This document shows positions 8,518-54,322 of a stretch of DNA of 64,000 nucleotides, piece after piece. Position 1 is the stretch's first letter, and every line of letters begins with the position of its first letter. The DNA comes from Minisyncoccia bacterium. GTDB lineage: Bacteria > Patescibacteriota > Minisyncoccia > SW-4-49-11. The notes beneath the pieces were generated by a model. The model was not told the origin of the DNA and searched no databases. It worked only from the letters and a program-made list of their open reading frames with translations. A program made the position numbers and the translations under genes. The stretch covers positions 402-64,401 of the forward strand of contig JBIKWJ010000004.1 in NCBI GenBank assembly GCA_044356325.1, written 5' to 3'.

Positions 8518-10386
8518 TTATTCCAATATTCCATCTGCATTATATTTTACAATATACATATCTGGACCAATGGAAGTAGTAAGTTCAGTTTGATTAGTAT
8601 CTCCATTCCCCAAAACAATAGTACCACCAAATTTTCCTACAGAAACAAGACTACCATCTACACTAGCAGAGATATCATTTCCATAATCATCACCAGTTCC
8701 ACCAGCTCTCTTTGCCCAAGCCAAACTTCCATCTGCATTATATTTTGCAGTAATTATATCATATCCTCCTGCACTTGTCAGAGGTACCGCGGATCCATCT
8801 ATTGTTAGAGTATTTTGGAAAAATCCAGTTAATATCACAGACCCATCTGATAAAGCAGCAGATCCCTGAAAAATATCAAAACCACTCCCTCCAATTTTTT
8901 TTACCCAAGCTAAACTTCCATTTGTATTATATTTTGCAACATAACCCTCAGCTACACCCAAATTTGATAATATTGTTTGATTTGACTCTCCTGGTGCAAA
9001 AGTAATCTGTTGACCCCAACCACCTGCCCAACCAGTAATGATACTACTTCCATCACTAAACCCAGTCATACTACTCACAGCATCATATCCATTTCCACCA
9101 GCTCTCTTTGCCCAAGCCAAACTTCCATCTGCATTATATTTTGCTATGAATATAGTATAATTTCCTGTACCTGTATTTAAAGTAGTAGCATTAGGATCCC
9201 CTACGCCAAAGGTTGTATTACTAGCAAAGAAACCTCCTACCATAAAGCTATTGTCAGCAAATGTATGTATTGCTCTTCCTCCTTGATCATGTACACCTTT
9301 TACATCCTTCGCCCAAACCAAGCTTCCATTTGCTGCATATTTTGCAATAAATATATCTGGTCTATCTAAACAGGTTGGTAAACAATCACGACTAGTAAAA
9401 GAAATTTGATTAGATTCACCCTGCCCAAATGTTGCGGTACCAGAGAACATCCCTGTAATAATACTAGTACCGTCAGTAAATGCTCCTAGCCCATAAGCAG
9501 AATCACTTCCATTAAATGTTCCCGCACCTCCGGCTCTTTTTGCCCACATTAATGTTCCATCTACATTGTATTTAGCTAGATAAATATCTTCAAGCCCAGC
9601 ACTCGTTAAATTAACAGCTCCTGTTTCTCCAGGACCAAATGTTATAGTATTTTTAAACCCCCCTGCAACTACAAAAGTACCATCCGCAAAGCTTTTAATC
9701 CGTGTTTCACCTACTATAGGTATATTACCACTAGTTCCACCAGCTCTCTTTGCCCAAACCAAGCTTCCATTTGCATTATATTTAGCAATAGCAAGTTCTG
9801 CAGATCCCGCACTTGTTAAACTAACAGCAACTGTTTCCCCAGCCCCAAATACCGCCGTCCCAGTAAAAGGTCCTGCTACGATACTGCTCCCATCTGATAA
9901 AGCAACTACTGAGTTAGTTCTACCAGTTGTTTCTGTAACAGTTGCTTTTTTTGCCCAGGTAATACTTAGAGCAAAAGAATTTATACCTATAACTTTTCCT
10001 AACTCACCAGTTAATACTTTAAGACTTATTTGTCCATTAGTTGGGTTTAATGCTATCTGATAATTGTCTCCCAAGGGATCTTTCGGTATTGCAGCTATAT
10101 AATCTGGGGCTAATGCACTTAAATTAACGCAATTAGTGGTTACTCCTACTGGACAAATATCTTTATATGATGTTGTAATACCGGTTGGATATGATCGATT
10201 TGTAACAAAATAATTCTCTAATGCTTGATTGATTTTAGTAATATCATCTAATCTAACGGTATTACGAGCTGATTGTAATTGTCTAGCAGGGTTAATTGCA
10301 ACTAATACAATGGAAGCTAATATACCTATTAAAGCTACTACTAATAGTATTTCTAATAAGGTGAAACCTTTTTTTTGTTTTTTCAT
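8518..10386 (-). CDS. Large type IV pilin-like protein: class III prepilin signal fused to about eight SBBP-type beta-propeller repeats
   Basis: N-terminus MKKQKKGFTLLEILLVVALIGILASIVLVAINP (G-F cleavage site, Glu at +5). The repeat (A)KYNADGSLAWAKRAGG(T/N)G is reiterated about eight times, with matching DNA-level internal repeats. Confidence 0.75.
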   Translation of the reverse strand: MKKQKKGFTLLEILLVVALIGILASIVLVAINPARQLQSARNTVRLDDITKINQALENYFVTNRSYPTGITTSYKDICPVGVTTNCVNLSALAPDYIAAIPKDPLGDNYQIALNPTNGQISLKVLTGELGKVIGINSFALSITWAKKATVTETTGRTNSVVALSDGSSIVAGPFTGTAVFGAGETVAVSLTSAGSAELAIAKYNANGSLVWAKRAGGTSGNIPIVGETRIKSFADGTFVVAGGFKNTITFGPGETGAVNLTSAGLEDIYLAKYNVDGTLMWAKRAGGAGTFNGSDSAYGLGAFTDGTSIITGMFSGTATFGQGESNQISFTSRDCLPTCLDRPDIFIAKYAANGSLVWAKDVKGVHDQGGRAIHTFADNSFMVGGFFASNTTFGVGDPNATTLNTGTGNYTIFIAKYNADGSLAWAKRAGGNGYDAVSSMTGFSDGSSIITGWAGGWGQQITFAPGESNQTILSNLGVAEGYVAKYNTNGSLAWVKKIGGSGFDIFQGSAALSDGSVILTGFFQNTLTIDGSAVPLTSAGGYDIITAKYNADGSLAWAKRAGGTGDDYGNDISASVDGSLVSVGKFGGTIVLGNGDTNQTELTTSIGPDMYIVKYNADGILE

Positions 10387-14179: not shown

Positions 14180-14326
14180 ACTATCTCTATATTAATTTCT
14201 ACACATCTTATATAGAGTATCATAGGATAGATGAATTGTCTAAAGTTTGTATGAGATGAGGAGATCGTAGATAAAACAGATTACTATATATTACTAGCCT
14301 ACAAAACATAGCTTGATACAAAAATT

Positions 14327-14434
14327 GTCCTCCTTTGCCTGTCTGCGGTAGGCAGGGCGGAGGTGGATAGAGTTTAAGTCTTTATCTTATCCACCCCCAC
14401 CTTTCAGGCTCCCCCCTCCTAAGGGGGACACCCC
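14327..14434. repeat. GC-rich palindromic repeat element copy
   Basis: gtcctcctttgcc...ggcggaggtggatagag...atccacccccacc...cctcctaagggggacacccc. It is preceded by the terminal motif gatgaggagatcgtagata at 14256. Confidence 0.7.
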
Positions 14435-14446
14435 ATGTTACATTCT

Positions 14447-16747: not shown

Positions 16748-16761
16748 ATGCAGTATTTGTT

Positions 16762-16856
16762 GTCCCTACCTATCGGCAGGCAGGCCCCTTTGGAGGGGGA
16801 AGCCTGGAAAGCGGGGGTGGATAAATTATAAACTTGAACCCTATCCTCCTCCACCG
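16762..16856. repeat. GC-rich repeat element copy, opposite orientation to 14327-14434
   Basis: gcgggggtggataaa...ctatcctcctccaccg is the reverse complement of the ggaggtggatag / atccacccc modules. Confidence 0.65.
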
Positions 16857-16882
16857 TCGCAAAGCGAGATATTTCATAATTC

Positions 16883-17278
16883 TTATCTATTCAAATAGGT
16901 TATACTCAATTGCAATATAGTCGCAAAGGAAACCCAGAGTAAATAAGGTATACTTGCATAAGTCACCCAGCGTAAATACGGCCAAATAGCAATCATCGCC
17001 CAGATGAGAGTAATCAATAATAGGATAATATCCAGAGAAGCTAATACATTATTCCTGAGCCCAAATTGCAATGGTGCAAAGGCAGCATTGAATACTAAAT
17101 TGAGTATAAAAGGTAAAGCTACTATCCATGGAATTTTCCCTATAGCCGCTTGATAGAATACCGTACCGAAACTGGCAAATATGATCAAATATAATATTGA
17201 CCATACCGATCCAAATAAATAGGATGGAGGAGCCCAGAAGGGTTTGATCAAATTCTCATACCAATTATAGGTGTTCAT
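16883..17278 (-). CDS. TspO/MBR-family tryptophan-rich membrane protein, short
   Basis: N-terminus WYENLIKPFWAPPSYLFGSVWSILY matches the TspO consensus (L.KP.W.PP..F..VW..LY). It has 4-5 TM helices. Confidence 0.6.
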   Translation of the reverse strand: MNTYNWYENLIKPFWAPPSYLFGSVWSILYLIIFASFGTVFYQAAIGKIPWIVALPFILNLVFNAAFAPLQFGLRNNVLASLDIILLLITLIWAMIAIWPYLRWVTYASIPYLLWVSFATILQLSITYLNR

Positions 17279-28142: not shown

Positions 28143-28190
28143 AAGGGATAATTATATTAATACGTATAGTATAACATACACTGTATTATT

Positions 28191-28314
28191 GTCCTCCTTT
28201 GGAGGAGGTACCCGCAGGGTGGAGGTGGATAATCAGAAAATTCTATTTTATATTAAACTTATATCTCTTTCCACCCCGTCAGGCAAAGCCTACCACCCCT
28301 CAAGAGGGGAATTT
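28191..28314. repeat. GC-rich repeat element copy between rarA and the fusA terminator
   Basis: gtcctcctttggaggaggtacccgcagggtggaggtggataa ... ccaccccgtcaggc...cccctcaagaggggaatttt. Confidence 0.7.
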
Positions 28315-28370
28315 TAAAACAAGACACAATTTCAAGGGAGGACATTTAAATCTGTTCCCTACCTACCAAA

Positions 28371-28400
28371 AAACCTGAGTTTTTATTCTCAGGTTTTTTA
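28371..28400. terminator. Rho-independent terminator downstream of fusA
   Basis: aaacctgag-tttttatt-ctcaggttt, flanked by an A-run and a T-run. Confidence 0.7.
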
Positions 28401-28419
28401 GGTTTATAGATTGACACTA

Positions 28420-30540
28420 TTATCTCGCTGTTCTCTTGGCAATAATATCTTGTTGCACATTGCTAGGAACTGGCTGATAATCATTGAATTCCATCACTGC
28501 ATTTCCTCGTCCTTGTGTCATAGAACGAAGTGTAGTTACATATCCAAACATTGAAGATAGCGGAACTTTTGCTGACACTACTTTGAGTCCACCAGTTCTA
28601 TCATTCATTTCTTCAATAAGTCCTCGTCGTGAATTTAAATCTCCTACTACGTCTCCCATATATTGCTCTGGAATAGTTACTTCCACTGCCATAATTGGCT
28701 CGAGAATAATTGGATTTGCTTTTTTTACAGCTGCTGAAAGAGCCATAGAACCTGCAATTTTGAAAGCTGATTCTGAAGAGTCAACATCATGATATGACCC
28801 GTCATATACTGTTGCTTTGATATTAATAAGTGGGTATCCTGCAATAACACCACGATCTATAGATTCTTTTACTCCCTTTTCAATGGCAGGCACATATTCA
28901 GATGGAATCGATCCTCCCTTTAATTCATTTCCAAAAATATAATGTTGTGGTTTCTTTGGGTCAATTTCAGTTGTTTCAGGATCAAATGACTCAACTCGAA
29001 GATATACATCTCCATATTGTCCTTTTCCTCCTGATTGTTTGATATATTTTCCTTGTGCTTCAGCAGAACTTTGAATAGTTTCTTTATAGGATACTTGTGG
29101 TTGTCCTACATTTACTTCTACGCCAAATTCTCGCTTCATACGATCCACAATAATATCAAGATGAAGCTCTCCCATGCCTGCAATAAGGGTGTCTCCTGTT
29201 ACTTCATCAGAACTTACTTTAAGAGTTGGATCTTCGTCAGATAATTTGTGTAGAGCTAAACTCATTTTTTCTTGATCAGCCTTAGTCTTTGGCTCAAGTT
29301 TAATCTGAATAACAGGTTCTGGGATAACAATTTTCTCCAAGATAATTGGATCTTTCTCATCACAAAGAGTATCTCCTGTAGTAGTATTCTTAAGTCCTAC
29401 AATAGCCCCAATTTCTCCTGCAGATAACTCCTCTACTTCTGTTCGAGAATTAGCATGCATCAAAACAAGTCGAGAAATTCGCTCTTTCTCCCCCTTGGTT
29501 GAGTTATACACATAACTTCCACTCTTAAGAGTTCCAGAATAGACTCGGAAGAATACTAATTGTCCAATATAAGGATCAGTTGCAATTTTGAAAGCAAGTC
29601 CTGCAAATGGTTCATTTTTATCTGCTTTTCGCTCTAATTCTTTTTCTTCATCATCTACATCAGTTCCTTTGGCCGCATCAATATCCAGTGGAGATGGAAG
29701 ATAATCAATAACAGCATCAAGCAATTTTCTTACAATAGCAGTTCGAGAATCTCCTCCGAGTACTGGGAAAATTTTTGATTCAAGAGTTCCTCGTCGAATA
29801 GCATATTTCATTTCTTCAGTTGAGAGCACACCATCATTCAAGAATAATTCAATTAATCTATCATCTACTTCTGAGACTTTCTCCATCAATACTTGTCGAT
29901 ATTCTTCTACTTGCTCGAGCATATCTGCAGGAATTTCAGCCTCAATAATTTCAGTCATACCAGCATCATCAGCATAGACATAGGCTTTATTCTCTACCAA
30001 ATCTACAAGACCTCGTATACCTTGCTCAAAACCAATTGGCAAAGCAATTACAACGGCATCTTTAGATAGTCGCTCCTGAATAGATGCAAATGATTTATAA
30101 AAATCTCCTCCAGTTTGATTGATTTTGTTTACAAAACAAATTCGAGGCACATTATATCTATCAGCTTGTCGCCAAACTGTCTCAGATTGTGGCTCTACCC
30201 CAGATTTTCCATCGAATACGGTAACCGCACCATCGAGCACACGAAGAGATCGCTCTACCTCCATAGTAAAATCAACATGGCCAGGAGTATCAATAATATT
30301 AATTCTATGATCTTTCCAAAAACAAGTAGTAGCAGCTGAGGTGATAGTAATCCCTCGCTCTCGCTCTTGTGCCATCCAATCCATTTCAGCCGCACCATCA
30401 TGTACTTCACCAATTTTATGCTTTAATCCAGTGAAATACAAAATTCGCTCCGTAGTAGTAGTTTTACCTGCATCAATATGCGCAATAATTCCAATATTAC
30501 GAACATCATCAAGAGGAATATCTTTGTGATCTTTGGCCAT
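28420..30540 (-). CDS. fusA: Elongation factor G
   Basis: G-domain [23 protein letters not shown] and NKMD. Full length is 706 aa. Confidence 0.95.
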
Positions 30541-31535: not shown

Positions 31536-31617
31536 AAATAATAATTATAATTAGCGGGGTGAGCAGTTTATACACCTATAAACGCTCAAAAGCACACCTC
31601 TTTTGGGAACTTGTTCT

Positions 31618-31646
31618 ATTGTAGTATATATATTGTTATTTGTCAA
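31618..31646 (-). promoter_or_regulatory. Sigma70-like promoter of the str operon (TTGACA-17-TACAAT on the minus strand)
   Basis: Consensus hexamers with 17-nt spacer, about 80 nt upstream of the rpsL start. Confidence 0.6.
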
Positions 31647-31654
31647 TATAAAGT

Positions 31655-31869
31655 TGGGGTTTCGTAGCGGAGGCTTTAAGTCCCTCCCATATTTTAGTTT
31701 GGGAGGGGGTTTATCCCGGCATATTTCGTAGAGTCAGAGACCTAGCCGATATATAGTTTCGTAGGGGCGACCTTTAAAGCCACCTGTACTATTTTGTCCT
31801 CCTTCGGAGGAGCTTTTGTCCCTCCTATATTTATTTAGGAGGGGGTGCCCCTCAGGGCGGAGGTGAATT
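31655..31869. repeat. GC-rich repeat element cluster upstream of the str-operon promoter
   Basis: tcgtaggggcgacc, gtcctccttcggaggag, aggagggggtgcccctcagggcggaggtga. Confidence 0.7.
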
Positions 31870-31922
31870 AGAGCAAAATACTAAATTAAAAAGATTTTAT
31901 ACATACACCTGTTATTGTAAAT

Positions 31923-31951
31923 TGACAAAATATGAATTTTGTGTTATGAAT
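31923..31951 (+). promoter_or_regulatory. Sigma70-like promoter (TTGACA-17-TATGAA with extended TGn) upstream of the SPFH gene
   Basis: Hexamers 10 nt upstream of the ORF at 31962. Confidence 0.5.
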
Positions 31952-31961
31952 AAAGAGTTCT

Positions 31962-33918: not shown

Positions 33919-34833
33919 TCAAACCAAGGCTGAGATAATATATTGTGTGATGAGGAAAGCCCCCATAATTATCATAAGTCCCACCACTGCATTCCTAATT
34001 CCATCTAAAGCCTGACCTACTTCTCCTGGATTAGAACTTGTCATATATTTAAAACCTGACATTACCAGTATTGCAACGGTAATAGCACCTAATATTCCTA
34101 ATAAAGCATTAATAATACCCGCTATAAGATCTGGAATACTATTGAACTTAATAGGATTAGTGAATCCTACACTTTGAGGCGCTGATGAGTCAGTAGTTCC
34201 TCCCCCACCAGTAGATCCAGGAGTAGCAGTACTTGCAGTACAAGTTGGTTTACCACCTTGAGTAGCACAAACTTGCCCAGAGGTACAAGTCTTTCCATCA
34301 CATTTACCATTAACACTTGCATCTTTTGTACAAGTAGGCTTACCTCCCTGAGTGGCACATACTTGCCCAGAAGTACAGGTCTTTCCATCACAAGTATCAG
34401 CCGTTGAACCTCCTGAGGTTGATCCACCAGGACTACCTGGTGGTTTTTTACTAATGTCACATGGTCCTGTTTTAGGCCCTGGAGCTCTACATACACCTAA
34501 TTCACCACCAGATTTACAAGCATCTCCAATTATAACACAATCTTCCCACCCATTCTTCTCAGAATCAAGTGTTTTACAAGTCAATGGATTATTTTTTGCT
34601 ACACTATCTGCATTTGTCCTATCACAAAAACCACTTTCAGTCTGCGTTGCAGTTCCTGCAGATTGCCCTCTTCCTCCAGTAGTTACTTCTCTTTGATAGG
34701 TACAATCATCTCCATTTTTTTTACCAGAACATGCGGTATTTTGTGGAGAACTCTGAGCAAAGCTATTCTGAGGGATAATTAATCCTATACCTAATAAAAG
34801 TGAGAATAAAATATATTTCATACTAATTTGCAT
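33919..34833 (-). CDS. Secreted Cys-rich protein with two 30-aa tandem repeats and a C-terminal VirB2/TrbC-like pilin hairpin (array member 7)
   Basis: Signal peptide present. Repeat CDGKTCTSGQVCATQGGKPTCT appears twice. C-terminus LIAGIINALLGILGAITVAILVMSGFKYMTSSNPGEVGQALDGIRNAVVGLMIIMGAFLITQYI is the shared paralogous hairpin. Confidence 0.6.
   Translation of the reverse strand: MQISMKYILFSLLLGIGLIIPQNSFAQSSPQNTACSGKKNGDDCTYQREVTTGGRGQSAGTATQTESGFCDRTNADSVAKNNPLTCKTLDSEKNGWEDCVIIGDACKSGGELGVCRAPGPKTGPCDISKKPPGSPGGSTSGGSTADTCDGKTCTSGQVCATQGGKPTCTKDASVNGKCDGKTCTSGQVCATQGGKPTCTASTATPGSTGGGGTTDSSAPQSVGFTNPIKFNSIPDLIAGIINALLGILGAITVAILVMSGFKYMTSSNPGEVGQALDGIRNAVVGLMIIMGAFLITQYIISALV
34238..34395. 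repeat. Tandem in-frame DNA repeat, 2 x ~90 bp (63-bp near-identical cores)
   Basis: acaagt(t/a)gg(t/c)ttacc(a/t)cc(t/c)tgagt(a/g)gcaca(a/t)acttgcccaga(g/a)gtaca(a/g)gtctttccatcaca appears at 34240 and 34330. Confidence 0.8.
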
Positions 34834-35239
34834 TTAATGGTATATTGATATCATCTACTGTGTCATCTGCTGGGAATACAAATCCTAATACGGTATTGGA
34901 TACGACAAAGGCAAAGAATATAATAATCAGTCCTATGATTGCATTTACCATTCTTTTTTGAGCTGATTCAGCCTGCTTCTCATCCCCTCCTGCTGTTGCA
35001 TATTCAAATCCTGCATATAGGAATATAATAAATATTATAATTCCTATAAATCCTAATATCCACCTTATAATAATCGACACTGTCTCTATCAGGCTTGGTC
35101 CCTCAGCTATTCCGGTATTAATTGGGATTGTCCCTGGATCAGGGAGAGTGGCATCAGGGGCTCTTTGAGCTAGAGATATATTAGAACTTAATACAAATCC
35201 CCCCATCAATAAAGCTATTATAATCAATAAGACTCTCAT
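34823..35239 (-). CDS. VirB2/TrbC-like pilin-family protein (array member 6)
   Basis: Signal peptide, then IIRWILGFIGIIIFIIFLYAGFEYATAGGDEKQAESAQKRMVNAIIGLIIIFFAFVVSNTVLGFVF. This is two hydrophobic helices joined by a short Gly-rich loop, as in T4SS pilins. Confidence 0.55.
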   Translation of the reverse strand: MRVLLIIIALLMGGFVLSSNISLAQRAPDATLPDPGTIPINTGIAEGPSLIETVSIIIRWILGFIGIIIFIIFLYAGFEYATAGGDEKQAESAQKRMVNAIIGLIIIFFAFVVSNTVLGFVFPADDTVDDINIPLNAN

Positions 35240-35299
35240 ATCTATTTTACTATTCTATATATTACAAGTATATCAAGTATTCTATTATCTGACAAGAAG

Positions 35300-35560
35300 A
35301 TGTATAAGATGAGGAAATTGTAGACACTGAGTTCTATTCAAAGTGTAAGCTTGTATTTTATCCACCCCGTCTCCTCCCATACAAAAGTATGAGAGGAGAC
35401 ACCCCTCAAGAGGGGAATTTTTCGTACAGTACATTTTTATATATTCCCCTCTTGAGGGGTGCCGTCGCTAGACGGTGGGGTGGAATACGGGCGACTGTAA
35501 GGTCACCCCTACACAACTCACACTTTATCTAGATATATGTCTCATCTTCTGAAGAAGATG
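35300..35560. repeat. GC-rich palindromic repeat element (MITE/REP-like) with AT-rich terminal motifs, inside the pilin array
   Basis: Near-perfect ~130-bp palindrome: ccaccccgtctcctcc...cccctcaagaggggaatttttcgtacagtac | atttt...ttcccctcttgaggggtg...gacggtggggtgg. The same modules occur at 53911-54272 in opposite orientation. Confidence 0.75.
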
Positions 35561-35643
35561 AGACAAAGGATATAGTCTATCCCCTAAATAATAAAAAGGG
35601 ATATGATAATCCCTTTTTATTATTTGTATATTAGATACATTAT

Positions 35644-36030
35644 TTAGACATTTCCTTGGAATACGAATGACAATACTGCATTTGAAGCAACAAAGGCAAA
35701 GAATATAATAATTAATCCAATTACTGCATTAATCATTCGAGATGTTGCACTTTTTGCTTTTCCTTCATCTCCTCCTGCTGTTGCATATTCAAATCCTGCA
35801 AATAAGAAGATAATAAATATAACAATTCCAATAAATCCTAATGCCCATCGAATAACGAGAGAGATGGTTCCTGTCAAACTAGTAGATTGAAAAACTCCTG
35901 TTCCAGTTGGAATAACTCCTATTCCTCTATTATCTGGGGTAGGTGATACAGCTCCAGCTAAAGCAGGTGCTAATACTAATAAAGGTAATAATACTCTTGT
36001 CACTATTGATTTTATTCTGGAGTTATTCAT
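35644..36030 (-). CDS. VirB2/TrbC-like pilin-family protein (array member 5)
   Basis: Start trimmed to MNNSRIKSIVTRVLLPLLVLAPALAGA (signal peptide). Hairpin is IRWALGFIGIVIFIIFLFAGFEYATAGGDEGKAKSATSRMINAVIGLIIIFFAFVASNAVLSFVF. Confidence 0.55.
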   Translation of the reverse strand: MNNSRIKSIVTRVLLPLLVLAPALAGAVSPTPDNRGIGVIPTGTGVFQSTSLTGTISLVIRWALGFIGIVIFIIFLFAGFEYATAGGDEGKAKSATSRMINAVIGLIIIFFAFVASNAVLSFVFQGNV

Positions 36031-36129
36031 AAGAATATCTATAATTATTAAATAATATGTCCTATAAGTATATATTATCATATAATATATACTTATGCAA
36101 GTAATAGCATTGTGGATAAGTCTATTATA

Positions 36130-36468
36130 TTATAAGCCAAAGACAAATCCTAAGACCGCATTAGACAAAACAAATGCTAACCCTACAATAAACACTCCTA
36201 TTACTGCTGCTGCAATTCTACTTATGGCTTCTTCGGTTTTTTTAGGATCTCCCCCTGCTGTTGCATATTGGAATCCAGAAAATAGTATAAGGACAAATAA
36301 TATTATCCCTATTAACCCGAGGCTCCATCTTACAATAGCAGATACAAAGGTAAATATATCTCCTTGTTCTGTTACCCCAGTACCAGTAGGAATACCCAAA
36401 ACAGGTGGTACAGATTCCTGAGCTTTGGCTGTAGCTATTATAAGATTTGCTATAAGTTTTTCTAACAT
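36130..36468 (-). CDS. VirB2/TrbC-like pilin-family protein (array member 4)
   Basis: VRWSLGLIGIILFVLILFSGFQYATAGGDPKKTEEAISRIAAAVIGVFIVGLAFVLSNAVLGFVFGL. Confidence 0.55.
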   Translation of the reverse strand: MLEKLIANLIIATAKAQESVPPVLGIPTGTGVTEQGDIFTFVSAIVRWSLGLIGIILFVLILFSGFQYATAGGDPKKTEEAISRIAAAVIGVFIVGLAFVLSNAVLGFVFGL

Positions 36469-36479
36469 ATATAAGATTA

Positions 36480-37151
36480 TTAAGCGCCAGCAGCAAGTAA
36501 ACCACTAGTTACAAAATTAGTAATGAGGAATGCCCCCATAATAATAAGCAATCCAATCACGGCATTGGTAATAGCTCCTGTAGCAGCTGCTGTTTGGCTA
36601 GCATTTCCAGAGGACGTCATATAAAGATATCCTTGTAATACAATGATTATAAAAAATACAGTTCCAAGAAGCCCTAATATCCAGCGTATAATATTAGCGA
36701 CATATCCTATGAGAGTTCCTCCTGTATTAAGTCCTGATCCAGCATTTCTGAATTGATTTAACCCCTGAGACAGTCCATTTGATTCACTATTAATATTATT
36801 ACCGCCAGTTGTAGGTGTTCCATTTGGAGAGTTTGGTGTATTTGGATTTTGCTTAGCATCTGCTGCAGGTTTTAATGTATTGGCTTTAGGTACAGGAGCA
36901 CATACAATTTCCTTTGCTTGATTTTGAATACATGCTTGTCCAGAGCTACATTTAACAGTAGAGTCTCCTCGGCAATCTCCATTACTTTCTGCCTGATTTT
37001 CCAAACATTTTGTAGCACCATCTACTGTTACACAGACAAAATCTCCCGTACAGTTAGGACCAGTGCCACAAGCAGCTAAAGCATTATCTGCCCCCCCCAT
37101 AAATCCGATTGCAAATAGAATTGCTAAACTTGTTGATAAAATAAATCTCAT
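36480..37151 (-). CDS. Secreted Cys-rich protein with a C-terminal VirB2/TrbC-like hairpin (array member 3)
   Basis: Signal peptide. Cys module CGTGPNCTGDFVCVTVDGATKC...CRGDSTVKCSSGQACIQNQAKEIVC. C-terminus IRWILGLLGTVFFIIIVLQGYLYMTSSGNASQTAAATGAITNAVIGLLIIMGAFLITNFV. Confidence 0.55.
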   Translation of the reverse strand: MRFILSTSLAILFAIGFMGGADNALAACGTGPNCTGDFVCVTVDGATKCLENQAESNGDCRGDSTVKCSSGQACIQNQAKEIVCAPVPKANTLKPAADAKQNPNTPNSPNGTPTTGGNNINSESNGLSQGLNQFRNAGSGLNTGGTLIGYVANIIRWILGLLGTVFFIIIVLQGYLYMTSSGNASQTAAATGAITNAVIGLLIIMGAFLITNFVTSGLLAAGA

Positions 37152-51292: not shown

Positions 51293-51314
51293 TATCTTAA
51301 TAAGGTTAAATATC

Positions 51315-51385
51315 TGAGTTCTGTAGGGGCGACCTGGTAGTCGCCTGTGCTATTATGTTCCCCCTCTGAAGACGGTGAGCTAGGT
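51315..51385. repeat. GC-rich repeat module (ctgtaggggcgacc..gtcgcctgtg type)
   Basis: Shares ctgtaggggcgacc and tcgcctgtg with 53931-53960 and 31757-31790, and (reverse-complemented) with 35488-35512. Confidence 0.7.
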
Positions 51386-51392
51386 TTCGATA

Positions 51393-51427
51393 GTAGAAAA
51401 AGAGGGACAGCATTACGCGCTGTCCCT
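51393..51427 (-). terminator. Rho-independent terminator for the clamp-like gene
   Basis: gggacagc-attacgc-gctgtccc followed on the minus strand by CTTTTTCT. Confidence 0.6.
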
Positions 51428-51444
51428 TAACACTGAATATACAC

Positions 51445-52338
51445 CTATAAACTCACGATGGGCATTAGCAAGTAATCCATATGTATATACGGCCCTATGG
51501 TGGCAGTAAATAGGAATTGCCCTGATCGTGTAGACCGATTGATATTCATTGTAACCAAACCCGATGATGAATAGCGCTTAACTAGCTCAAGGAAATCCAA
51601 TAACTGTTTTACACTAAAAGAGATATCCTCATAATGAATAGGTGTTTGCAATAAAATATCTAACTCTTTACCGTTATACGCAGTAAATATGAGCTTTAAT
51701 GAACCATTATCTTGCCTAGTTTGAACATTAACCACACCAGCCGCCAGCAACTCCAACTTCTTAACTTCTTGATCCGTTAATTCTTCTGAATCCCCCGCTA
51801 ACCTCTTAACTGCTTCACCCATTAAATTCTTAACTTTTTTAAGGAAATTGTATAAACGGTTACCATCAAAAGATACTGTATTTTGGTGGTCTAGAGTTGG
51901 CCAAGCATTGTCTAGGCTCTCATAAGGATATTGATTAATTCTATTTTTCCTTAATTCAATCCTATCCGAGGAAATGGAGCGAATTATTGGGTTACCTTTG
52001 CATAGATCATCTATAACCCCTACTTGTCCAATACCCAATTGGCTACGACCTAATTGGTCTATTCTTACAAACCGAGGGGACTTAACATATCTTGAAAATG
52101 CACTTCGATGAATGAGTATCGGCTTTGTGCAGTGCCATATGGTATTTTGAAAGGTAATACGCAATGCTCGAACGGTATCAGTGGAAATAATTCGCATTCC
52201 ACCATTTAAAGGCTGGATAAAAATGCAGTTAAGGCCCTCACGATATTTATCCCTACTAGCACATATGCTAGCCGCGTACAGTACGCCTTCAGGTAGCAAC
52301 GCTAATACTTTGTTCATGGGAAAAGCTCCAATGTACAA
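51445..52338 (-). CDS. Two-domain DNA polymerase III beta-clamp-like protein (DnaN paralogue lacking domain I)
   Basis: REGLNCIFIQPLNGGMRIISTDTVRALRI aligns with DnaN domain II (RYYLNGMLFE....LRTVATDGHRLAV). The C-terminus YLLMPIVSL resembles DnaN YVVMPMRL. The gene has visibly higher GC than its neighbours. Confidence 0.5.
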   Translation of the reverse strand: MYIGAFPMNKVLALLPEGVLYAASICASRDKYREGLNCIFIQPLNGGMRIISTDTVRALRITFQNTIWHCTKPILIHRSAFSRYVKSPRFVRIDQLGRSQLGIGQVGVIDDLCKGNPIIRSISSDRIELRKNRINQYPYESLDNAWPTLDHQNTVSFDGNRLYNFLKKVKNLMGEAVKRLAGDSEELTDQEVKKLELLAAGVVNVQTRQDNGSLKLIFTAYNGKELDILLQTPIHYEDISFSVKQLLDFLELVKRYSSSGLVTMNINRSTRSGQFLFTATIGPYIHMDYLLMPIVSL

Positions 52339-52432
52339 AAAGAATATATCATATCTCTTCCAATTTGTCTACGATATATCTCATCACCCTCCTTGCTTTT
52401 TTGCCTCATTTATGCTATAATATAGTAACAAA

Positions 52433-53909: not shown

Positions 53910-53910
53910 T

Positions 53911-54272
53911 ATCGTAGATAAATTGTGAGTTCTGTAGGGGCGACCTTACAGTCGCCTGTGTTCTCCACCCCGTCTGTCTAGAGACATCCACCCCTCAAGA
54001 GGGGAATTTTTCGGACAGAGCCTTTTGTTATATACTGACTCCTATCTACTCACAACCCATGAGGGAAATTTTTAGAACAGTACATTGTATATATTCCCCT
54101 CTTGAGGGGTGGACAGCTTCGCTGGACGGGGTGGATAAAATACAAACTCAAACTCTATCCACCTCCGGCCTAGCGGCGACCTCCTCCAAAGGAGGACAAT
54201 AAAACTGTCCCTCGCTGGCGAGGGTGCCCGTAAGGGCGGGTGTGGACTGAGCTAATTCCCCTCTTGAGGGGT
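53911..54272. repeat. ~360-bp composite cluster of GC-rich palindromic repeat modules (largest copy of the family)
   Basis: Contains ctgtaggggcgaccttacagtcgcctgtg, ccaccccgtc, cccctcaagaggggaattttt ... ttcccctcttgaggggtg, gacggggtggata, tatccacctcc, gacctcctccaaaggaggac and ttcccctcttgaggggtag. All of these recur at other loci. Confidence 0.8.
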
Positions 54273-54291
54273 AGCAAAATAATATCAGAAA

Positions 54292-54320
54292 TTGACAAAA
54301 CTGCTATTTTATGCTATAGT
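54292..54320 (+). promoter_or_regulatory. Sigma70-like promoter (TTGACA-17-TATAGT) upstream of the glycosyltransferase gene
   Basis: Consensus hexamers immediately upstream of the ORF at 54323. Confidence 0.5.
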
Positions 54321-54322
54321 CT

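Follow-up and report, generated by a model that had tools for sequence, protein, structure and literature searches.

The 362 nt that follow the fmt stop codon and reach the side of the glycosyltransferase gene, at positions 53911-54272 of a 64-kb window of contig JBIKWJ010000004.1 from a Minisyncoccia bacterium, hold an array of small GC-rich repeats (the window is the whole stretch of DNA that was analysed, and all positions refer to it). The array is best explained as a pile-up of DNA-level repeats in the spacer between the two genes. Its units are probably non-autonomous mobile elements, comparable to miniature inverted-repeat transposable elements (MITEs) or to doublets of repetitive extragenic palindromes (REPINs), and a cassette with a DUF559 gene is probably their gene-bearing form. 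The sequence is as the initial annotation had described it, about 360 bp of GC-rich DNA. It consists of four units of ~45 nt in alternating orientation (U1-U4), one solo hairpin and one GTAG-type hairpin, M1.

The pieces that had been listed as separate modules in the initial annotation belong together, since ccaccccgtc, a small hairpin and cccctcaagaggggaat form one unit of ~45 nt. In this unit an anchor, CCACCCC(G), is followed by a variable hairpin, by the constant hairpin CCCCTC-aa-GAGGGG and by AAT. The variable hairpin is 3-14 bp long and occurs in about 100 different sequences among the matches listed. The G-rich strand of the unit reads CCCCTC-tt-GAGGGG, a loop containing the hairpin, and GGGGTG, a final block that mirrors the purine arm and has T opposite A. 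Of the 952 pyrimidine/purine hairpins in all fetched loci, 467 are followed downstream, within 70 nt, by a perfect mirror block, as against 96 with such a block upstream and 186 with the direct-repeat version. Arm and mirror block change together in more than 15 subfamilies, among them GGAGGGG/GGGGTGG, AGAAGGGG/GGGGTAGT and GGAGGA/AGGTGG. The variable hairpin may serve as a connector which shortens the loop between the last two blocks (loop 2), and this role would explain why its pairing is kept while its sequence is free. A UUCG-tetraloop was considered for this hairpin and rejected, as its loops are the 3-nt TTC or TAC closed by C-G. The resemblance of GGAGGTGGAT to a Shine-Dalgarno/anti-Shine-Dalgarno pair is better explained by the mirror-block rule.

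The recurrence of the modules at six other loci in both orientations was borne out by a blastn comparison of the gaps with the whole window. The modules are confined to seven intergenic gaps (14180-14446, 16748-16882, 28143-28419, 31536-31961, 35240-35643, 51293-51444 and 53910-54322), where they lie on both strands, and none was found in coding sequence. The sequence CCCCTCAAGAGGGG occurs six times in the window, while 0.02 occurrences are expected from 100 dinucleotide shuffles. Hairpins with a mirror block were called 18 times (about 12-13 distinct units), against 0.17 in 30 shuffles, and all calls but one fall within the seven gaps. A covariance model, R1, which was built from 29 seeds and gives rough E-values, detected six units in the window, five of them full and one partial, as well as diverged copies at 14.3, 16.8 and 28.2 kb. 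An independent assembly of another sample (L002) is 100% identical over 6.5 kb including two of the repeat loci, and the array is therefore not an assembly artefact.

Pairing at the DNA level and distribution of the unit

The unit is not confined to the window. One genome per species was scanned for the exact 18-mer ACCCCTCAAGAGGGGAAT, which returned at least 118 stretches, where ~17 would be expected by chance according to our own arithmetic. The unit is present in at least 68 genomes of many phyla. Among the matches listed, window copies included, 136 of 144 occurrences of the 18-mer have CCACCCCG or a one-mismatch variant of it 10-31 nt upstream, and in these 136 a hairpin lies between the anchor and the 18-mer. 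True units are also found in the isolates Pedobacter mendelii, Parasediminibacterium sp. and Flavobacterium sp. RHBU_24. A phage origin was considered and rejected: in eight of nine viral contigs the 18-mer lies within a coding region and lacks the anchor, and only one contig has a true unit. The eight are the IMG/VR loci L121-L125 and L127-L129, which form one phage group with ACCCCTCAAGAGGGGAAT in a conserved coding region lacking CCACCCCG. This looks like coincidence or an old in-frame capture rather than a canonical unit. A second conserved block, ACATAGCCCATGAATTTATTCGTGGGT, was noticed ~25 nt upstream of the unit in L017, L061, L116 (a metagenome-assembled genome, MAG, of Desulfobulbaceae) and L114 (Ignavibacteria MAG). 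The MAGs sharing it are assigned to different phyla, and some MAG taxonomic labels are doubtful.

The variable hairpin is conserved as a paired structure. Among the matches listed, five of its six pairs show double changes, and none of 500 shuffles reaches the observed covariation score. No G·T pair occurs among 504 stem pairs in 106 distinct hairpins, and the loops are mostly three nucleotides long. The lack of G·T pairs in the face of such covariation speaks for DNA, and not RNA, as the level at which the hairpins are kept. Folded as single-stranded DNA, the 362 nt reach -83 kcal/mol (z = -8.9), an energy that counts Watson-Crick pairing only.

The initial annotation had named a structured RNA as an alternative. 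According to this explanation the elements act mainly as RNA, either as structured non-coding RNA or as hairpins of 3′ untranslated regions (terminators or mRNA stabilisers in the style of the E. coli repetitive extragenic palindromes, REPs), and RNA function keeps the hairpins paired. The strong covariation would be in line with it, as would the T run that often follows the terminal hairpin, the terminator-like score of CCCCTCAAGAGGGGAATTTTT at 53991-54012, directly after fmt, and the high stability of the folded region. We nevertheless regard it as very unlikely. An Rfam search of the window at the gathering threshold returned RNase P and a tRNA and no match to the repeats, and even at E ≤ 10 only miRNA noise was obtained for the region; a tRNA/tmRNA scan gave nothing relevant to the repeats. 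Wobble pairs are lacking and three-nucleotide loops dominate. Relative to the neighbouring genes both orientations of the units occur, and the unit at 28268-28315 is antisense to both of its neighbours. Copies in the genes rsmA and tgt of other genomes are translated, as described below. Finally, the mirror rule has no RNA rationale, because purine-motif triplexes are not formed in RNA (PMC4666352).

Differences between relatives and the DUF559 cassette

The nearest genome in the GTDB set is the MAG CAZPCB01 (locus L097), which is labelled 'Candidatus Saccharibacteria' and has ~94% gene identity to the window. The comparison with a relative for presence or absence of insertions, which the initial annotation had proposed, revealed several blocks that only the window contains. 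Within near-identical flanks, the window has an extra M1 block of ~47-49 nt and an extra block of 62 nt at 54006-54067, between U1 and U2, flanked by a direct repeat of AATTTTT. A 1093-bp block at 51299-52391, which includes an M1 copy as well as an open reading frame (ORF), is likewise absent from L097. The variable hairpin of U4 has been swapped as a whole: it is GCCCgtaaGGGC in the window and GTCGACgaaGTCGAC in L097, and the flanks are identical. As to the 1093-bp block, its ORF (51445-52338, minus strand, 297 aa) has only a weak RusA-like match in PHROG, and no Pfam or NCBIfam match was found. The block ends with the M1 hairpin on one side and with GATGAGATATATCGTAGACAAATTG (reverse strand) on the other, and it may be a separate mobile gene cassette.

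Copies of the unit are also found within genes of other genomes. The rsmA genes of four Nomurabacteria/Paceibacterota MAGs (L020, L066, L078 and L041) contain a doublet of ~85-95 nt at the same site (SPLEEYPLGGGG..ATPQEGN). The inserts differ in length and keep the frame, their hairpins differ across species at the orthologous site, and L020 has an extra half-unit that is missing in the orthologues. Near-identical doublets of ~85-95 nt are shared by rsmA of L041 and tgt of the related MAG L082. RsmA of the four MAGs and Tgt of L082 are read through the element, and their Pfam domains span the inserts. Among the matches listed, long open frames contain 24 of the 144 copies, and the orientation is sense for 20 of these. 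The hairpin replacement at an orthologous site, the differing rsmA hairpins and the near-identical doublets in different genes of related MAGs suggest conversion from other copies. The idea of the initial annotation that the repeats are a non-autonomous mobile element of the MITE or REP type, spread through intergenic regions, thus gains support from their multiple copies in both orientations, from the indels and the hairpin replacement relative to L097, from the near-identical copies in different genes of related genomes, and from units that end a gene-bearing cassette elsewhere.

The gene in this cassette is a small DUF559 (PF04480) gene, which adjoins the units in several phyla. In a clustering of ~1200 open reading stretches from the 118 unit-bearing loci listed, only DUF559 and housekeeping genes recur, and no family resembling Y1 transposases or other mobility genes does. 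In the Kapaibacterium-like locus L038, a reverse unit lies 25 nt before the DUF559 ATG and a forward unit just past the stop codon. All fetched contexts of DUF559 homologues share this bracketing (L038, L076, L090 and L130-L136 are flanked by units), and several DUF559 protein calls in the databases include translated units at both ends. We further collected 80 metagenomic loci of one DUF559 subfamily by a metagenome scan with the family alignment and called the units with R1. A reverse unit was found upstream in 63 of 74 cases and a forward unit downstream in 62 of 76, with both present in 57; the median gap between gene and unit is 36 nt upstream and 26 nt downstream. Where related cassettes sit in unrelated flanks, the similarity runs out at ATTCCCC... 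and ...GGGGAAT or no more than a few bases away from them. A cassette's two terminal hairpins agree with each other even in the bases of the loop, but its variable hairpins differ. The cassette is 450-700 bp long with DUF559 as its sole gene, and there are several DUF559 copies per genome. The family has invariant acidic and His residues, and its profile matches only PDB 3HRL, an uncharacterised DUF559 structure.

Two observations on individual loci may be added. In the Gracilibacteria MAG L090 (1817-2350) an inverted unit pair precedes the DUF559 gene, in which in-frame TGA codons are read through; this is consistent with the alternative genetic code of the lineage. In two copies from a single Kapaibacterium-like lineage, L038 (1-21 and 567-588) and L130 (1462-1484 and ~2040-2060), the last ~20 nt of a type IX secretion system gene (Por_Secre_tail, AKFLVVE*) are repeated beyond the cassette, which could be a long duplication or a co-converted flank as left by homing.

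The association of DUF559 with triplex-type repeats is not restricted to the ~45-nt unit. The DUF559 genes of L063 (Nomurabacteria MAG) and L056 (unclassified uncultured bacterium) are flanked by canonical short-loop triplex motifs. The DUF559 gene ycjD of E. coli K-12 (locus L217, 1351.2-1351.8 kb) ends in a degenerate block resembling BoxC, behind which lie a remnant of the gene's 3′ end and, after it, a full BoxC, a sequence with a median of 15 places per genome. The DUF559 homologues of Enterobacter, Klebsiella and Franconibacter end inside a type-B TMECO, and a type-A TMECO follows. The ycjD gene is accessory and present in 3378 of 5426 complete E. coli genomes (62%). O157:H7 (L227) has a TetR/RND efflux gene set and no BoxC at the ycjD position. 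Because genomes without ycjD such as this one carry a different gene set there, no boundary of ycjD can be read from the comparison.

The array and the other repeat-bearing gaps

The array starts with M1, a long module (TCGTAGATAAATTGTGAGTT + CTGTAGGGGCGACCttacaGTCGCCTGTG) with a GTAG-type, REP-like hairpin at 53912-53960 (plus strand). Other M1 copies lie at 51315-51349(+), at the end of the 1093-bp block, at 35483-35531(-) and, in degenerate form, at 31760-31790; the M1 family is limited to related MAGs of the candidate phyla radiation (CPR). U1 follows at 53962-54010 (plus strand) as TCCACCCCGTC - TGTCTagAGACA - TCCACCCCTCaaGAGGGGAAT, with an R1 score of 62.4 bits (E = 1.2e-13) and with its mirror third block, GGGGTG, on the opposite strand. 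Between U1 and U2, a decayed copy of the terminal hairpin and spacer at 54051-54095 is a direct repeat of 53989-54033 (family D6). U2 lies on the minus strand at 54090-54137 (68.2 bits, E = 4.1e-15) with its outer end toward U1, and the two form a 21-bp perfect inverted repeat. U3, a variant unit at 54156-54202 (plus strand), is composed of TATCCACCTCC, a short hairpin, TCCTCCaaaGGAGGA and CAAT; it has the mirror GGAGGA/AGGTGG and is collinear with 28185-28231(-). The inner ends of U2 and U3 make up the inverted repeat GGGGTGGATA - 18-nt AT loop - TATCCACCTCC at 54128-54166 (direct-repeat family D8). The elements ggaggtggata and tatccacctcc, which had been taken for a module of their own, are these inner ends of two inverted units. 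In full cassettes this is the position of the DUF559 gene, and the U2/U3 topology recurs in L038 and other cassettes and in the ~85-95-nt doublets of other CPR genomes. U4, again a variant, occupies 54205-54246 on the minus strand (TCCACACCC - GCCCttacGGGC - ACCCTCGCcagCGAGGG, mirror GAGGG/GGGTG). The last element is the solo terminal hairpin ATTCCCCTCTTGAGGGGT at 54253-54272 (minus strand), which lacks anchor and variable hairpin and matches R1 partially with 25.2 bits. The units pair with inner ends facing (GGTGGATA-loop-TATCCACC) or with outer ends facing (GGGGAAT-spacer-ATTCCCC), and the alternation resembles an array of bacterial interspersed mosaic elements (BIMEs). Just outside the array, at 54292-54320 (plus strand), lies a promoter-like site for the glycosyltransferase gene (TTGACA-17-TATAGT), which matches at 11 of 12 positions and is kept in L097.

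The remaining gaps contain related arrangements. At 28185-28315 (plus strand) a U3-type unit (28185-28231, minus) and a canonical unit (28268-28315, plus; 70.5 bits) surround an AT loop, and this doublet is laid out like a gene-less cassette. At 35359-35531 two canonical units with outer ends facing (35359-35421, plus, and 35440-35486, minus; 54.3 and 46.9 bits) are followed by the M1 copy on the minus strand, and the whole is collinear, in reverse, with 53915-54007. A diverged doublet with weak R1 matches and the mirror AGGGGG/GGGGGT is found at 14321-14432 (14321-14369, minus, and 14388-14432, plus). It forms a 71-nt inverted repeat with 16785-16855, where a diverged unit and the inner hairpin GGGGTGGATA..TATCCTCCTCC are located. 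Upstream of rpsL, the stretch 31760-31876 comprises the decayed M1, a TCCTCCttcGGAGGA unit and more GC hairpins. AT-rich motifs (GATGAGGA-N3-(C/T)GTAGA(T/C)A, often followed by TGAGTTCT) stand beside the repeat clusters at 14262-14285, 35309-35332, 52355-52380(-) and 53912-53925. In the initial annotation they were reported, as tcgtagata, gatgagga and attgtagaca, to bound the copies. They do recur, as gatgagga..cgtaga.a, at three or four loci; however, they are not the boundaries of the units, and their match to a promoter is unconvincing.

The window has a G+C content of ~35% and contains T4SS-pilin paralogues, typical of CPR/Patescibacteria, together with the housekeeping genes def, fmt, priA, fusA, rpsL and cmk. 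Five or six paralogous T4SS-pilin genes (PF18895) cluster at 33919-37151, and the repeat cluster 35240-35643 lies between two of them. Throughout the window, genes have no Shine-Dalgarno sequence and show TATAAT-like boxes very near their starts, for example upstream of 28420-30540(-) and 16883-17278(-), which suggests short or absent leaders. The ORF 8518-10386(-) contains about seven internal tandem repeats of ~200 nt and for this reason encodes a repeat-domain protein.

Relation to known repeats and candidate mechanisms

No match to the repeat sequence strings was obtained in the literature search, and the initial annotation had named no family. The units nevertheless have the block layout of the BoxC/PIT/TMECO intrastrand-triplex repeats, which are known from E. 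coli, other Proteobacteria and cyanobacteria (Holder et al. 2015, PMC4666352) and go back to work from the 1990s (Bachellier 1990s and Hoyne & Maher 2000, cited after Holder et al. 2015); PIT stands for potential intrastrand triplex. In this layout, which the window units obey, a C-rich block is followed by a complementary G-rich block and by a mirror-image G-rich block (class II purine motif). Further common features are the high GC content, the dispersed, multi-copy, intergenic occurrence in either orientation, the frequent inverted pairs, the absence of a transposase nearby and the variation of the loci between strains; the neighbours of the window units are housekeeping genes. The strict TMECO pattern, CCCTCNCCC-N3-6-GGGNGAGGG-N3-GGGNGAGGG with stems of 9 nt and a second loop of 3 nt, TTA or CCG (PMC4666352), is not matched by the window units. 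Their blocks have 5-7 nt instead of 9, loop 1 has 2-4 nt, and loop 2 has 9-40 nt and contains the hairpin of free sequence. The published search for intrastrand triplex-forming sequences (ITxF) allowed loops of 1-6 nt only (PMC4666352), and it would have missed units of the window type because their loop 2 exceeds this maximum. The units also differ from BoxC/PIT/TMECO in their AT-rich CPR host, in the relatives inserted in frame in genes, and in the link to DUF559, enterobacterial homologues included, which is absent from the paper of Holder et al. (PMC4666352).

Other families resemble the units in part. Like the units of REPs, BIMEs and REPINs, they are short palindromes in alternating orientation, with the inverted doublet as the likely replicative unit. 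As with REPs and their REP-associated Y1/HUH transposases (RAYTs), two inverted units enclose one small gene, and M1 has the signature of GTAG plus hairpin. In contrast to the RAYT, the bracketed gene encodes a nuclease of the PD-(D/E)xK type (DUF559/Vsr-like) and not an HUH Y1 transposase. The main units further differ from REPs by the mirror third block, by the lack of GTAG and by a constant sequence common to different phyla, REPs being species-specific. By their description, the Rickettsia palindromic elements are likewise small palindromes from a reduced, AT-rich genome which interrupt housekeeping genes in frame and are translated with them. This likeness holds for the rsmA and tgt copies of relatives, while the window has no in-gene copy; unlike the units, these elements have no known associated gene. 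With MITEs, the units share terminal inverted repeats (ATTC(C/T)CCTCTTGAGG(G/A)GT... and ...CACCCCTCAAGAGGGGAAT), a short AT-rich interior, many gene-less and rarer gene-bearing copies, and insertion polymorphism. They differ from MITEs derived from insertion sequences by the lack of a DDE transposase, DUF559 being the gene of the gene-bearing form, by the lack of a detectable target-site duplication and by the length of that form of only 450-700 bp. TIGR-Tas arrays were considered and dismissed, as the stems here are perfect hairpins and not dual spacers; a search of the literature for palindromic repeats or MITEs of CPR returned only TIGR-Tas and unrelated papers.

For the spread of the units we consider the following course probable. 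A DUF559 endonuclease (Vsr-like, PD-(D/E)xK), encoded elsewhere in the genome or lost, would act on the folded unit ends by recognising or cutting them, and break repair, gene conversion or cut-and-paste would then spread and homogenise the units. We infer the role of DUF559 as the mobilising enzyme, the triplex or hairpin fold as its substrate and the mode of movement. Several points weigh against this explanation. The loci were picked by an exact 18-mer, and the sample is therefore biased toward conserved copies. The 69.7-kb contig, window included, contains no DUF559 gene, and the searchable literature documents no activity of a DUF559 nuclease on such DNA. Neither a target-site duplication nor a clean empty site was found at eight cassette boundaries, at the in-gene insertions or at the E. 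coli ycjD site. A triplex formed by blocks of 6-7 nt with a hairpin in loop 2 is putative. M1 is built by other rules, with GTAG plus hairpin, and a separate enzyme may be responsible for it. Moreover, a DUF559 homing-endonuclease gene invading the central loop would give the same architecture.

This last point leads to the main rival, in which DUF559 is a passenger homing-endonuclease gene that targets the central loop of an existing inverted doublet, and the units spread otherwise, for instance through replication slippage, template switching, recombination by the host or a different transposase. The location of the gene is invariably between the inner ends (..GGGGTGGAT / ATCCACCCC..), at the place taken by a short AT loop in gene-less doublets; a group I intron homing endonuclease is known in the DUF559/Vsr clade (PMC3424549); and the ~20-nt duplication of the upstream gene's 3′ end beyond the cassettes of L038 and L130 is as expected of homing with co-conversion. 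We judge this rival rather unlikely, because the similarity of the cassettes stops at the outer unit ends, which implies that gene and units move together, because the terminal hairpins of one cassette are matched including the loop bases, and because no other mobility gene recurs near the units in the 118 loci listed. Both this rival and the DUF559-mobilised explanation predict nuclease action at the units; they differ in whether the gene-less copies depend on the DUF559 gene.

A classical REP/BIME system moved by a RAYT encoded elsewhere in the genome appears improbable. The REP hallmark, GTAG followed by a palindrome, is present in M1 and in several D31 hairpins, including those at 31655-31790, and the arrays with alternating orientation resemble BIMEs. 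RAYT genes, like DUF559 here, are reportedly flanked by inverted repeats. The main units, however, lack GTAG, no Y1/HUH transposase gene is found in the 64-kb window, no Y1-transposase-like family recurs among the ~1200 open reading stretches of the 118 loci listed (loci, not whole genomes), and the gene recurring between inverted units is DUF559. A RAYT in single copy may still be present, in particular for M1. Still less probable is that the units are DNA structural elements selected by the host as triplex or cruciform sites for proteins, for nucleoid organisation, replication pausing or local variability. Between phyla, and likewise between orthologous copies inside genes, it is the hairpin that changes and the constant parts stay identical; BoxC and TMECO oligonucleotides form triplexes in vitro, with TMECO loci hypervariable among E. 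coli strains (PMC4666352). Against such a role, close relatives differ in the number and position of the copies, coding continuity is disturbed only by tolerated in-frame insertions, and the link to a nuclease cassette that has defined ends and several copies is more easily reconciled with a selfish element. The earlier studies, as far as they are quoted in PMC4666352, report no promoter or terminator activity.

Taken together, the interpretation given in the initial annotation is partly supported. We tentatively put forward a wider proposal, in which DUF559 nucleases of the YcjD type (Vsr-like) may be the mobility or homogenisation enzymes of BoxC/PIT triplex repeats throughout Bacteria, the gene with its two inverted triplex-motif ends may be an autonomous cassette of 450-700 bp that uses folded non-B DNA ends and neither DDE nor HUH chemistry, and the arrays of the window, the rsmA and tgt insertions and the BoxC repeats of E. 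coli may all be its non-autonomous offspring. To our knowledge, IS200 with ~700 bp is the smallest autonomous insertion sequence known; if the proposal is true, the cassette would be at or below this size.

BoxC/PIT/TMECO repeats have been known since the 1990s, and Holder et al. state that no mobility function was ever found near them (PMC4666352). No origin, function or mobilising activity is known for them, and DUF559 would be a testable candidate enzyme. No link between such repeats and DUF559 is reported in the DUF559 or BoxC literature found, subscription-only papers being outside the search. Three features are described here: the conserved sequence of the unit, which many phyla share in at least 68 genomes, its translated presence inside essential genes of reduced genomes, and its systematic physical link to a tiny DUF559 nuclease gene, which reaches the YcjD homologues in Enterobacteriaceae. 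For CPR protein alignments the repeats are also to be seen as a cause of spurious insertions, and for MAGs as a cause of broken contigs.

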